IMG/VR virus record: IMGVR_UViG_2675903336_000004
DNA: 32,403 nt
Direction: 5' to 3' (one strand)
Source of the DNA: a virus
Lineage: Duplodnaviria > Heunggongvirae > Uroviricota > Caudoviricetes
The position numbers and the translations under genes were made by a program. Below, piece by piece: positions 4,024 to 15,747 of this stretch. Position 1 is the first letter of the stretch, and every line of letters starts with the position of its first letter. A model generated the notes under the pieces. It saw only the letters and a program-made list of their open reading frames with translations. It searched no databases and had not been told where the DNA came from.

Positions 4024-4901
4024 AAACGCCCACCATTCCCACCCTTCTGGGACCGGACGGCATGACATCGCTGCGTGAATATGCCGGTTATCACGGCGGT
4101 GGCAGCGGATTTGGTGGGCAGTTGCGGGCGTGGAACCCACCGGGTGAAAGTGTGGATGCAGCCCTGCTGCCCAACTTTACCCGTGGCAATGCCCGCGCAG
4201 ACGATCTGGTACGCAATAACGGCTATGCTGCCAACGCCATCCAGCTGCATCAGGATCATATCGTCGGGTCTTTTTTCCGGCTCAGTCATCGCCCAAGCTG
4301 GCGCTATCTGGGCATCGGGGAGGAAGACGCCCGTGCCTTTTCCCGCGAGGTTGAAGCGGCATGGAAAGAGTTTGCCGAGGATGACTGCTGCTGCATTGAC
4401 GTTGAGCGAAAACGCACGTTTACCATGATGATTCGGGAAGGTGTGGCCATGCACGCCTTTAACGGTGAACTGTTCGTTCAGGCCACCTGGGATACCAGTT
4501 CGTCGCGGCTTTTCCGGACACAGTTCCGGATGGTCAGCCCGAAGCGCATCAGCAACCCGAACAATACCGGCGACAGCCGGAACTGCCGTGCCGGTGTGCA
4601 GATTAATGACAGCGGTGCGGCGCTGGGATATTACGTCAGCGAGGACGGCTATCCTGGCTGGATGCCGCAGAAATGGACATGGATACCCCGTGAGTTACCC
4701 GGCGGGCGCGCCTCGTTCATTCACGTTTTTGAACCCGTGGAGGACGGGCAGACCCGCGGTGCAAATGTGTTTTACAGCGTAATGGAGCAGATGAAGATGC
4801 TCGACACGCTGCAGAACACGCAGCTGCAGAGCGCCATTGTGAAGGCGATTTATGTCTATCATCTCACCGTAGTTGCCCGCATCGTTCGCCAACTCCACTG
4901 A
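4020..4901 (+). CDS. B: portal protein B, 5' fragment (about 276 native codons, then island-derived codons and a stop; gene interrupted by insertion)
   Basis: [31 protein letters not shown]... matches the lambda gpB N-terminus through ...LQSAIVKA. After the junction near 4849 the reading frame continues into unrelated sequence ([17 protein letters not shown]) and stops at 4899-4901. Confidence 0.9.
4842..4849. repeat. attL core (AAGGCGAT), left copy of the direct repeat flanking the island
   Basis: AAGGCGAT at 4842-4849 is repeated at 15740-15747. The extended imperfect match is AAGGCGAT(T/G)TATG. Lambda B-like sequence lies to the left of this copy and to the right of the other. Confidence 0.7.
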
Positions 4902-4978
4902 AACCCTTGCTGCGTCTGGAATGTCGTTTTCCATGCTTTTGATGACCGTTCATCACCCTTCCAGTTTTTCGCGGTTTT

Positions 4979-5031
4979 GTGTATTGCAATGTGTATTGCA
5001 AATTGGCGATCGGGATGGGTGTGTATTGCAA
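4979..5031 (+). repeat. integrase arm-type direct repeats GTGTATTGCAA x3 (attL arm, upstream of int)
   Basis: Exact 11-mers at 4979-4989, 4991-5001 and 5021-5031. Two more copies in the same orientation sit at 15645-15667, just inside attR. Confidence 0.7.
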
Positions 5032-5049
5032 ATCTCTTGAGGGCTTTTA

Positions 5050-6291
5050 ATGGCTATTGAAAACAAACTCAGTGACAAACTGTTAAAGAGTCTTGTCGGA
5101 AAACGGCAGGACAAACAAAAAACAATAGCGGATGGGCGCGGGTTGTCTGTGCGTGTAAGCATGGTTGGGGGGATCAGCTTTGTTTTTTACTATCGTCTTG
5201 GTGGCAGGGAATCCCCTCCGGTATGGCTTACACTTGGTCGCTATCCTGACATGTCTCTTGCAACGGCCAGGCGCATGCGTGATCAGTGCCGTGAATGGCT
5301 GGCTGAAAATCTGGACCCCCGCAGGCAAATAAAACTTGCTGCCGAAAAAACTATGCAACCAGTGACCGTAAGGGATGCGCTGTTTTACTGGTACGACAAT
5401 CACGCCACAACAGCCAGAAAAGAGCATGAATATTTAATAAAACGATTTGAAAAGCATATCTTCCCCTATATCGGTGATATGGCTATAGAACAGTGCAAAT
5501 TACACACATGGCTTACCGTCTTTGACAGGATCAAAAAAAATGCGCCTGTTATGTCTGGTGCAATTTTTCTTGATATCAAACAGGCGTTGCGTTTTTGTCG
5601 CGTCAGGCAATACATCGCGTGCGATCCCTTTGGAGATATTAACGTAAGTTATGTCGGGCGCTCATCCGGTATAAGGGATCGCGTTCTTAATATCAATGAA
5701 ACCGCTGATGTATGGTCTTATGCTTACGGTAATAATTTGCTAACTCTGTCATCAATATATAACCGAAGAATAATGGTTATCTGCCTGGTGTTTGGTTGCC
5801 GACAGCAGGAGGCGAGGCTATCCACCTGGGACGAATGGGATTTAAAAAACTGGGTATGGACAGTCCCAAAAGAGCACAGCAAAAACAAGGAGGCTATAGT
5901 AAGGCCTGTTCCTGACGGAATAAAACAATGGATCGTTAATCTTTACGCAGAAACAAAAAATCGCGGTTATGTTGTCGGTTGTGCTTTGCAAAGGGCGACA
6001 ATAACAGGGGCTGCAAACAGAATATGCAGGCGTCTTGGTCATGATACTAATGGCTTGTGGTGCATACATGATTTCAGGCGCACATTTTCCACTACGCTTA
6101 ATGATATGGGGGCGGATCCTTATATTGTCGAACTTCTTTTAGGTCATAAAGTGAAAGGGGTTGCTGGTGTTTACAATAAAAGCAGGCATATAAAGAAAAA
6201 ACTTGAGGTGCTTAATATGTGGGTTAATTACCTTAATACGATAGCAGGATTTAACAACAACGTTATCGAGCTTAATAAAGAGGTGGTGTGA
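5050..6291 (+). CDS. int: tyrosine-type site-specific integrase (P4-like family)
   Basis: 413-aa ORF with the C-terminal catalytic signature HDFRRTFSTTLNDMGADPYIVELLLGH...VYNKS (His-x-x-Arg and Tyr). Located immediately inside attL, preceded by the arm repeats. Confidence 0.9.
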   Translation: MAIENKLSDKLLKSLVGKRQDKQKTIADGRGLSVRVSMVGGISFVFYYRLGGRESPPVWLTLGRYPDMSLATARRMRDQCREWLAENLDPRRQIKLAAEKTMQPVTVRDALFYWYDNHATTARKEHEYLIKRFEKHIFPYIGDMAIEQCKLHTWLTVFDRIKKNAPVMSGAIFLDIKQALRFCRVRQYIACDPFGDINVSYVGRSSGIRDRVLNINETADVWSYAYGNNLLTLSSIYNRRIMVICLVFGCRQQEARLSTWDEWDLKNWVWTVPKEHSKNKEAIVRPVPDGIKQWIVNLYAETKNRGYVVGCALQRATITGAANRICRRLGHDTNGLWCIHDFRRTFSTTLNDMGADPYIVELLLGHKVKGVAGVYNKSRHIKKKLEVLNMWVNYLNTIAGFNNNVIELNKEVV

Positions 6292-6292
6292 T

Positions 6293-6550
6293 ATGACAAT
6301 TTATTCTCTTGTTGATGAAAACGATTTGCGCACAATGAAGGACATTGATCGGTTCATTCGTGAAAAAGAGTGCATAGCACTTACCACGCTGGCAAACTCA
6401 ACACGCTGGAAAATGGAGCAGGCAGGTAAATTCCCGCGACGTATCAAGATCGGTGAACGTGCTGCAGGGTATCGACTTTCAGAGGTTCAGGCATGGATCC
6501 GTGGTGAGTGGCATCCTGGATGGAAACCTGGAAAAACAAAACAGCAATAA
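6293..6550 (+). CDS. alpA: AlpA-family transcriptional regulator / putative excisionase
   Basis: 85-aa ORF directly downstream of int. The segment IREKECIALTTLANSTRWKMEQAGKFPRRIKIGERAAGYRLSEVQAWI fits the AlpA/Xis-type HTH pattern. Confidence 0.8.
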   Translation: MTIYSLVDENDLRTMKDIDRFIREKECIALTTLANSTRWKMEQAGKFPRRIKIGERAAGYRLSEVQAWIRGEWHPGWKPGKTKQQ

Positions 6551-6563
6551 CCAGTAAATAATG

Positions 6564-6586
6564 CCCCTCATCACGAGGGGTTTTTT
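6564..6586 (+). terminator. rho-independent terminator after alpA
   Basis: Hairpin CCCCTC-atcac-GAGGGG followed by TTTTTT. Confidence 0.75.
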
Positions 6587-6606
6587 GTCTATAAGGTAAA
6601 AACGCG

Positions 6607-14637: not shown

Positions 14638-14648
14638 CGTAGTACGCT

Positions 14649-14930
14649 ATGACTGAATCCGAAATACTGCGATTAATCCGCCGTGCTTGTGGAATCAGCA
14701 AGCAGCATGACGAACAGGCCACGCAGCCGGACAGCGTGACCGCAGATAATTATGTGCGTGTAGTGGCTGAGGTGATGCGCCGTGACGGTATTGAGCTTAA
14801 CGGCGTGGATATGCGCAACATACGAACAAGAGTCCTTGAGTTGCTGGCATATCGTCGCCGTTCTCAACAACGGAGGGAGAGCGCGAAAAATACTTACCAG
14901 TGGAAGAAGCCGGAACGATTGCGGCGGTAA
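14649..14930 (+). CDS. hypothetical protein (93 aa, Arg-rich C-terminus)
   Basis: Complete ORF immediately downstream of the island terS. No recognisable motif. Confidence 0.4.
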   Translation: MTESEILRLIRRACGISKQHDEQATQPDSVTADNYVRVVAEVMRRDGIELNGVDMRNIRTRVLELLAYRRRSQQRRESAKNTYQWKKPERLRR

Positions 14931-14945
14931 CTTGCTGATATTCCC

Positions 14946-15156
14946 GATAACGCAAAATTGCGCTGGCTGACTTGTTGCATTGCAAAAAGTTAAGCAGGAA
15001 GGCACGGCCTGTAAGATGGGATGCAGTAAGTAGTTCAAGGCTACCTTGTGCTGGCACGCACAGTTAAGCCGTCGGTGCTGGATATCCCCCACTGGGGGAA
15101 AAGCTGGCTACATCCCTCACATCTGAGGACTGATAACGCGACATTGCGCTGGCTGG
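14946..15156 (+). repeat. pair of 24-bp direct repeats GATAACGC(A/G)A(A/C)ATTGCGCTGGCTG, each followed by a short palindrome
   Basis: Copies at 14946-14969 and 15133-15156 match at 22 of 24 positions. Palindromes CGCAAAATTGCG and GTGCAAAATTGCAC lie within or next to them. Confidence 0.6.
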
Positions 15157-15180
15157 CAAAGTGCAAAATTGCACGATGGC

Positions 15181-15342
15181 CTAACCCATTGATTATTTCG
15201 AAAACCTGCAATGCAGGAAATCGGGGAAGTAAGCCTAAGCTATTGATTGTTTCGAAAACCCCCATTGGGGGATGTCGGGAAAGTAAGACTAACCCATTGA
15301 TTCTTCCACAATCCTCAATTTGAGGAGGCCGGAACGTCTACA
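15181..15342 (+). repeat. three tandem 54-bp repeat units, each with a different perfect hairpin (covarying stems)
   Basis: Units start at 15181, 15235 and 15289, each with CTAA(C/G)C(C/T)ATTGATT. Hairpins are CCTGCA-a-TGCAGG (15205-15217), CCCCCA-ttg-GGGG (15259-15271, stem of 4-5 bp) and CCTCAA-t-TTGAGG (15313-15325). Related hairpins lie upstream at 15086-15098 and 15115-15128. Confidence 0.7.
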
Positions 15343-15644
15343 TAGCTGCATCGCCGTAATGATGATTCAGCCCACCAGCCAAATCAGCACAGCAACGACA
15401 GAATAGCCCGACACAGAAAAACCACGAATATGGGGTTTTTGTTATGACATGGTCATGATGACCACTCATACAAAACAGGTAAAGCCCACCAGCCTGATTA
15501 AAGGTTAACCGGAAAAAAGCCAGGTATCCAATCTCGATATGGGGATCCCTATATCGACATTAACGCCCACTAAAACTGTGCATATATGCATAGAAAAAGC
15601 ATCCACCAGCTTTATGACGGATGCCGCTCATCTTATAAATAATC

Positions 15645-15667
15645 GTGTATTGCAGTGTGTATTGCGA
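15645..15667 (+). repeat. integrase arm-type repeats (GTGTATTGCAG, GTGTATTGCGA) at the attR arm
   Basis: Two copies in the same orientation as the three attL copies, about 75 bp inside the attR core. Confidence 0.65.
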
Positions 15668-15739
15668 CTCCTTTAAACGATAGGTCTGAGCATTCGTAAT
15701 GTACTGTTTTTAAATTTTATTTTTTCCTGTCTTTTCATA

Positions 15740-15747
15740 AAGGCGAT
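15740..15747. repeat. attR core (AAGGCGAT), right copy of the direct repeat
   Basis: Identical 8-mer to 4842-4849. Lambda B coding sequence resumes immediately to its right. Confidence 0.7.

Follow-up and report, generated by a model that had tools for sequence, protein, structure and literature searches.

A 10.9-kb helper-embedded island splits the portal gene of a lambda-like prophage and matches the B:Phage_portal_2:241 group

Introduction

The closest described relatives of the element considered here are the helper-embedded phage-inducible chromosomal islands (HE-PICIs), defined by Tommasini, Mageeney & Williams (2023, NAR Genom Bioinform 5:lqad036; PMC10111431), who mapped 491 of them to 14 sites in nine lambda-cognate late genes, with three confirmed sites in the portal gene B, and estimated that HE-PICIs occur in about 5.4% of Escherichia coli genomes. 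According to that paper, these islands are laid out in Integration, Bro, Replication, and Late zones, some of them carry C4/isrK immunity RNAs, and their residence within a helper gene is connected with the idea of "regulated gene integrity". We analyzed a stretch of 32,403 nucleotides (nt) of viral DNA (Caudoviricetes; IMG/VR record IMGVR_UViG_2675903336_000004), hereafter the window, in which an island of about 10.9 kb with an integrase gene at its left end divides gene B of a lambda-like prophage.

Two systems provide the functional background. For Eco567.11capE (E:Phage_cap_E:80) of E. coli NRG857c, quantitative PCR and deep sequencing showed that induction is followed by excision of the composite of helper and satellite, then by replication, and then by excision of the satellite at about 2 h (PMC10111431). 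EcCICFT073 is a cos-type Gram-negative phage-inducible chromosomal island (PICI) with lambda-like cosQ and cosN and a different cosB, by which packaging is redirected to the island; its Rpp protein hetero-oligomerizes with the phage small terminase (TerS), and structures of RppC are reported to have been solved (Fillol-Salom et al. 2018, 2019; PMC6739421).

Results

The portal gene is split in frame and can be rejoined in silico

A late operon of the lambda type (Nu1, A, W, B, C, D, E through J) runs along the + strand of the window, and in it B is read at 4020-4849 and again from 15748 onward. Between the two parts lies an island of 10,898 bp (counted with one core copy), which is inserted at codons 275-277 of B, is oriented in the same way as the helper late operon, and has int and alpA at its left end, in agreement with the initial annotation of this DNA from its letters and open reading frames (ORFs). 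The 5' part follows lambda gpB up to ...SAIVKA; from 4850, 17 unrelated island codons lead to a stop at 4901, so that the resulting ORF encodes 293 amino acids (aa). When 4020-4849 is fused to the sequence from 15748 onward with one core copy, the frame is kept and the product is a lambda-type gpB. The last ~200 nt of B are within a stretch masked by N (16317-16584) and hence are not readable in the window. In the unmasked sibling genome, APEC 102026 (NZ_CP087290.1), the island is likewise 10,898 bp long, and the rejoined B is a clean ORF of 1602 nt encoding 533 aa, as had been predicted for precise excision.

The comparison with empty sites in related prophages that the initial annotation called for gave the same picture: the rejoined site, ...GTGAAGGCGATGTATGCC..., which corresponds to the attB of the island, agrees at 503/503 positions with the uninterrupted B of phage PhiR68_2 and with that of no fewer than eight complete E. 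coli genomes. Recombination within AAGGCGAT, the short sequence repeated at both junctions, would thus restore wild-type B exactly. The insertion brings no replacement sequence, so that the helper is without a full-length portal for as long as the island stays integrated; the earlier claim that the portal gene stays broken until excision is borne out in this respect. The methionine at the right junction, previously numbered 276, is residue 277 of the rejoined ORF of APEC 102026. A C-terminal portal fragment started at this methionine from an island-borne AAAGG, as was also proposed, is doubtful because only 2 nt separate AAGG from the ATG, well below the usual Shine-Dalgarno spacing of 5-9 nt, and because AAGGCGATG is native to the uninterrupted B, only one extra A coming from the island.

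Five stretches of 253-290 nt each are masked by N in the window (3140-3426, 16317-16584, 20247-20536, 24852-25123, and 29731-29983). All five are in helper DNA, with none in the island and none at a junction, and they cover the 3' end of B together with the start of C, as well as parts of A, Z, H, and J. The masks create artefactual long ORFs at 15746-16642 and 16093-17832 and an apparent split of J at about 30023; the first of these, which had been among the listed ORFs, was rejected as a product of reading through N.

Attachment cores and arm-type repeats lie at both island ends

The 8-bp direct repeat AAGGCGAT reported initially has its only two occurrences in the 32.4-kb window at the two junctions, starting at 4842 and 15740. 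The arm-type repeats recognized just inside both ends are likewise present. GTGTATTGC occurs in five copies (4979, 4991, 5021, 15645, and 15657), all on the + strand and no more than 180 bp from an island end, the third left copy, at 5021, being an addition to the repeats first noted. No further copies were detected elsewhere in the window, for which the chance expectation for a 9-mer on both strands is ~0.25 copies. In the reconstructed attP, the upstream motif extends to about -78 and GTGTATTGC starts at +133, small offsets in these values depending on the reference point. Both core copies and all of the arm repeats are perfect, and the repeats at 4978-5033 are probable arm-type binding sites for Int (or AlpA).

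The island belongs to a described group of HE-PICIs

The supplementary table of PMC10111431 contains many ~10.9-kb E. coli islands with names ending in ...11.B_Phage_portal_2_241 and the identity block "aaggcgat". The junctions of the window match the attL and attR strings given in Supplementary Files 3 and 4 of that paper, ...gccattgtgAAGGCGATttatgtctatcatctca... and ...cctgtcttttcataAAGGCGATgtatgccgccacc..., over the stretch shown. The same source places a doubled motif, tgTGTATTGCantgTGTATTGCa, on either side of the attP center, at about 81 bp on the upstream arm and at about 132 bp (132 +/- 2) on the downstream arm; doubled motifs of the tgTGTATTGCantgTGTATTGCa type stand on both arms of the window attP, with an extra copy at +176. 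Furthermore, positions 4850-6300 of the window (1,451 nt; int and the start of alpA) are 100% identical to NZ_CP011416.1 3698292-3699742, and the element CP011416.1/3698288-3709185 is listed as Eco2613.11.B_Phage_portal_2_241 (PMC10111431). By its identity to this listed element, rather than by placement in a tree, the integrase is assigned to the HE-PICI clade and to its B:241 subclade. In the current Pfam Phage_portal_2 model, residue 276 of B falls at position 237, which is consistent with the "241" in the published site name.

Judged by these sequence matches, the island is a member of the B:Phage_portal_2:241 group, the element and its insertion site were already described in 2023, and the initial annotation was a correct rediscovery. 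Its view that it is unusual for a satellite to target a structural gene of the helper does not hold in light of the 491 such elements published at 14 late-gene sites (PMC10111431). A few of the B_Phage_portal_2_241 members in Supplementary File 1 of that paper have "gcgccat" or "at" as the identity block instead of "aaggcgat". GCGCCAT is present in B 4 nt upstream of the core (4831-4837 in the window), which suggests slightly shifted crossovers or junction drift in some lineages.

Recurrence across genomes points to a site-specific mobile unit

Among 5,426 complete E. coli genomes surveyed for the junctions and the empty site, 62 have the attL junction (at least 99.6% identity among those listed) and 58 have the attR junction; these genomes come from chickens, pigs, dogs, humans, beef, and wastewater. 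The uninterrupted portal site is found in 3,118 of the genomes. The portal-site group is common, with a frequency of about 1% among complete E. coli genomes and of about 2% among those whose B gene is of the same type. The suggested survey for the same int beside portal fragments found the two adjoining each other in 63 of 65 genomes, with two partial copies. Comparison of window positions 3907-32402 with APEC 102026 revealed that the island and adjacent B are 99.9% identical, in contrast to 91-98% for the surrounding helper DNA, and the helpers of the B:241 group have been mapped to tRNA-Arg, icd, ybhC, proP, and potB (PMC10111431). This difference in identity, the several helper sites, and the near restriction of int to the neighborhood of a portal fragment together argue for a site-specific mobile unit rather than one inherited accident. 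Near-identical islands thus occupy different helpers, some of which are probably defective.

Decayed copies are present in a few genomes (FDAARGOS_1287, strain 74-2, and O121 201805972). The decayed forms include an int split into ORFs annotated as "Arm DNA-binding domain" and "site-specific integrase", a truncated int, and half of an int without an adjacent portal fragment.

Gene content of the island

The zone order in the island is int and AlpA, followed by Bro-N, then DUF4222, primase, and SSB, and finally cap_E, HDPD, the AlpA-like protein, cos, and Nu1 (Table 1). The int, alpA, and primase genes are all on the + strand, co-oriented with Nu1-A-W-B...J, and the 101-aa gene at 7519-7824 is the only clear minus-strand gene of the island. 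Profile comparisons with Pfam and PHROGs retrieved no portal, protease, large terminase (TerL), head-tail connector, tail, or lysis genes among the island ORFs. On account of these absences, the island is unable to form particles by itself and depends on a lambda-like helper.

Table 1. Coordinates of the split portal gene, the attachment sites, and the island features in the window
Feature	Position	Strand	Evidence or remarks
B' (5' portal part, codons 1-276 plus 2 nt)	4020-4849	+	Pfam Phage_portal_2 profile positions 2-237 for residues 32-276
attL copy of 8-bp identity block AAGGCGAT (crossover core)	4842-4849	+	Same block listed for B:Phage_portal_2:241 in PMC10111431 Supplementary File 1
Doubled TGTGTATTGCA motif plus third copy	4978-5033	+	TGTATTGC starts +134, +146, and +176 from attP core center
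Tyrosine integrase, 413 aa, full length	5050-6291	+	Pfam Arm-DNA-bind_3, Phage_int_M, Phage_integrase
AlpA-family regulator/excisionase	6293-6550	+	Pfam Phage_AlpA
Bro-N domain protein ("Bro zone"), anti-repressor-like	6607-7185	+	Pfam Bro-N; phrog_2593
101-aa gene, YlcI/YnfO family per RefSeq	7519-7824	-	phrog_6522; RefSeq annotation of sibling genome
Icd-like small protein	8015-8212	+	Sibling annotation, PHROGs
Three small ORFs without assigned function	8205-8390, 8390-8581, 8582-8803	+	
DUF4222 protein (replication zone)	8821-9120	+	Profile match
D5_N/DUF5906/Pox_D5 primase-helicase (replication zone)	9117-10871	+	Profile matches
Two 27-nt direct repeats just 3' of primase gene	10879-10992	+	
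Single-strand DNA-binding protein	11467-11889	+	Pfam SSB
Island major capsid protein, lambda gpE paralogue	12107-13147	+	Pfam Phage_cap_E; 42% identity to helper E; start per RefSeq sibling annotation
Island head decoration protein, lambda gpD paralogue	13157-13498	+	Pfam HDPD; 37% identity to helper D
Second AlpA-family helix-turn-helix protein, 127 aa	13510-13893	+	Pfam Phage_AlpA; phrog_2790; PDB 8c3t (AlpA family protein), E 8e-11
Island cos site	13917-13983	+	Lambda-type cosQ/cosN block conserved; cosN GGGCGGCGACCT at 13950-13961
Small terminase (Nu1) paralogue, full length	14095-14637	+	Pfam Phage_Nu1; phrog_57 over residues 5-180
Conserved 93-aa protein, function not assigned	14649-14930	+	phrog_1561
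Doubled TGTATTGC motif, other attP arm	15644-15666	+	Copies start -98 and -86 from core center
attR copy of 8-bp identity block AAGGCGAT	15740-15747	+	
B'' (3' portal part)	15748-16519	+	Stop expected near 16519, inside N mask 16317-16584

A terminator-like hairpin is found 3' of alpA at 6563-6581. In the gap between the Bro and replication zones, a GTG-initiated ORF of 356 aa at 7142-8212 (+) has no family match and is almost certainly spurious, the real genes being those at 7519-7824 (-) and 8015-8212. The repeats at 10879-10992, of which there are two copies only, might tentatively be viewed as origin iterons from their position relative to the primase gene.

The right arm of the island is non-coding over ~800 bp and contains three tandem 54-nt repeats at 15179-15340. 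Each repeat holds a perfect 13-nt palindrome in the same register and with a different sequence (CCTGCAATGCAGG, CCCCCATTGGGGG, and CCTCAATTTGAGG), and further small palindromes are present nearby at 14975-15128. RNA folding z-scores of the 54-nt repeats were unremarkable (-1.3 on both strands), and the repeats had no Rfam match; their palindromes could be protein-binding sites or small hairpins. More generally, Rfam had no match to the window as a whole when gathering thresholds were applied, nor to the island when the cutoff was relaxed to E<=1, C4/isrK immunity RNAs included. None of the phage records searched contains the island, and only the cos block, over ~66-80 bp, matches lambda-like phages.

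A second cos site and a small terminase paralogue

About 70 bp of the island cos is common to the cosQ/cosN block of the helper and lambda, including the exact lambda cohesive end, GGGCGGCGACCT. Downstream of this conserved block, in the cosB region, there is no similarity between island and helper: directly 3' of the island cos is the full-length Nu1 paralogue, preceded by a cosB part (13984-14094) that is unrelated to that of the helper. The Nu1 paralogue is 37% identical to the helper Nu1, with the strongest similarity in the C-terminal, TerL-binding half. Since the terminase-redirecting protein of EcCICFT073 is Rpp, we also looked for its counterpart by sequence search: no solved structure matched the 184-aa Nu1-like protein at E<=0.01, and the only entry to match the 127-aa protein was of the AlpA family. 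Both of the relatives studied, 11capE and EcCICFT073, are said to be devoid of terS, so that the B:241 subgroup may retarget packaging with its own TerS rather than with Rpp.

The cosN of the helper itself, at 1147-1158, is GGGCGGAAGGCG, which differs from the GGGCGGCGACCT of lambda and the island at 5 of 12 positions, and no complete E. coli genome matched the 251-bp helper cos region above 98%. We considered that GGGCGGAAGGCG might be unique to this window, an artefact, or a killing mutation and rejected this, because 78 IMG/VR contigs have the same cosN, as does a prophage of strain 582 whose portal gene is intact. In APEC 102026, the helper of the same island has a canonical cosN. The presence of GGGCGGAAGGCG in the prophage of strain 582 and of a canonical site in the APEC 102026 helper indicates that the variant is natural and not tied to the island. 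Just upstream of the helper cos is a gene annotated as YlcI/YnfO (714-947, minus strand). It was examined as a possible paralogue of the island gene at 7519-7824 that bears the same annotation, and no significant similarity was found between the two.

It is conceivable, if doubtful, that the island biases packaging at both cosB and cosN, beyond withholding the portal: its own Nu1-type TerS, together with the helper gpA, would prefer the island cos, or the variant cos of the helper would be cut poorly, possibly with the 293-aa portal fragment as an inhibitor. We found no discussion of such a bias in the parts of PMC10111431 consulted. If true, it would mean that the B:241 subgroup works differently from 11capE and EcCICFT073.

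Discussion

Proposed delayed repair of the portal gene by satellite excision

The in-frame split, the perfect attachment sites, and the recurrence of the unit in different helpers make it very probable that the island is a lambda-dependent, cos-packaged satellite of 10.9 kb that was inserted by its own tyrosine integrase in the portal gene of a lambda-like prophage and whose excision repairs B. On the precedent of 11capE and EcCICFT073, SOS induction would cause the whole composite of helper and island to excise and replicate. Q-antiterminated late transcription would then continue past B' and enter int-alpA; the + strand from 4901 to 5050 showed no terminator-like site. Int together with AlpA would excise the island late and thereby repair B, upon which the island TerS paralogue would bind the island cosB and recruit the helper gpA to the island cos. 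The portal, protease/scaffold, head-completion proteins, and tails of the helper would package the island DNA, possibly in capsids with the E and D paralogues of the island. Overall, the virion output of the helper would be delayed and lowered and the satellite would be guaranteed a helper, and we infer by this analogy that the window element constitutes a dependency switch. In such an arrangement, the satellite is replicated, and probably transcribed, passively along with its helper.

Several observations weigh against this reconstruction. The order of excision, the read-through transcription, and the packaging steps are extrapolated from 11capE and EcCICFT073, and no virions were recovered for 11capE or its helper (PMC10111431). 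Many HE-PICI helpers look truncated (PMC10111431), and the tail-tip gene J of the APEC 102026 helper is annotated as frameshifted with an internal stop. In the window itself, the masked stretches leave the integrity of the helper late genes only partly readable, and the cosN of the helper and that of the island mismatch at 5 of 12 positions.

Some of these observations would also be expected if the insertion was site specific and the composite is now inactive, in which case the split portal gene would be a permanent pseudogene rather than a regulated switch. The truncated helpers and failed virion recovery in PMC10111431 and the frameshifted J of APEC 102026 fit such a stranded remnant, as do the genomes with a split or truncated int, and the early region of the helper lies outside the window while several of its late genes are partly masked. 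Nevertheless, int in the window is a full-length ORF of 413 aa in which none of the three Pfam domains is missing, the core copies and arm repeats are perfect throughout, and the visible halves of B are free of decay, their rejoined sequence being 100% identical to the B gene of a functional phage. We therefore regard permanent inactivity here as unlikely.

Alternatively, the main selected effect might be the disabling or throttling of the helper, for instance, by the truncated 293-aa portal fragment, with timing being secondary; either the satellite or the host would then profit from the block of helper virion production. Satellites commonly interfere with their helpers (discussion in PMC10111431; Rpp in PMC6739421), and, until excision, late mRNA would give rise to a B' product of 276 portal and 17 island-coded residues. 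However, the island needs the helper portal and encodes none, so that permanent inactivation would harm the island too, and the stability of the fragment and any inhibition by it are purely conjectural. This proposal overlaps with delayed portal repair and does not exclude it; as an account of the main selected effect, we consider it rather improbable.

The capsid, decoration, and small terminase genes of the island might also suggest an unrelated small temperate phage or a capsid-forming PICI (cf-PICI) that was inserted in the prophage by chance. This is highly improbable, as the island has no portal, protease, large terminase, connector, tail, or lysis genes, the same B codon is always hit in different helpers, and the int region is matched at 100% identity by a listed member of the late-gene-targeting HE-PICI integrase clade (PMC10111431). 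Finally, the chance that the contiguity of island and portal halves is a product of misassembly is close to nil: both junctions recur in the surveyed genomes, which come from many laboratories, hosts, and platforms, the same junctions have been published for dozens of assemblies (PMC10111431), and the masks that do exist in the window spare the junctions.

The window adds no new principle, the biology of such composites having been established in 2023 and since cited in the satellite literature. There is a practical consequence, in that prophage annotation will miscall these composites as prophages with portal pseudogenes.

Comparison with known satellites and gene-splitting elements

The island shares with the B:241 HE-PICIs the identity block, attL and attR, the ~10.9-kb size, the doubled TGTATTGC on both arms, the zone layout, and the lambda-like helper, and nothing of substance differs from the published account (PMC10111431); the Nu1 paralogue with its own cosB, the third motif copy at 5021, and the variant helper cosN were not found spelled out in the parts of it used here. 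It resembles 11capE in the type of element, the integrase clade as given in PMC10111431, the four-zone layout, and the residence within a late gene of a lambda-like helper. Unlike it, 11capE targets the capsid gene E with a 10-bp block and is said to lack terS, whereas the island has a Nu1 paralogue.

With 10,898 bp in the range of about 10-15 kb, int, alpA, and primase genes, and no tail or lysis family matches, the island also has the attributes of a Gram-negative cos-type PICI. It is similar to EcCICFT073 in these three genes, in the retention of cosQ/cosN along with a different cosB, and in its helper type, EcCICFT073 being dependent on lambda or phi80. EcCICFT073, however, occupies a chromosomal site and uses Rpp, which was sought here by sequence only, whereas the island resides in helper gene B and has a complete TerS paralogue. 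The cf-PICIs differ from it in having their own portal, protease, connector/adaptor, and packaging genes, as against paralogues of the capsid, decoration, and small terminase proteins only. P4-like satellites have a P2-type helper in place of a lambda-like one, and the P4-like Psu, Sid, Delta, and Epsilon families had no match among the island ORFs in Pfam and PHROGs.

PICIs of the SaPI1/SaPIbov1 type encode their own TerS. As in the island, packaging or assembly of the helper is diverted in SaPI-type PICIs by a satellite-borne TerS and/or a capsid protein paralogue, the latter exemplified by Ccm of SaPIbov5, which diverts helper assembly (PMC8569155). These elements are otherwise distinct, being Gram-positive, located at chromosomal att sites, unrelated in sequence, and mostly packaged by a pac mechanism.

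Beyond satellites, the nearest parallel is the skin element in sigK of Bacillus subtilis, a regulated gene integrity element whose excision at a defined time restores the gene. Both skin-type elements and the island split a gene that excision restores; the former do so in a developmental gene of the host and serve the program of the host, whereas the latter does so in a structural gene of the helper for the benefit of the satellite. The concept of regulated gene integrity is itself cited in PMC10111431. A satellite within a structural gene of its helper would turn this principle to the advantage of the parasite, as no heads can be made before the satellite leaves.

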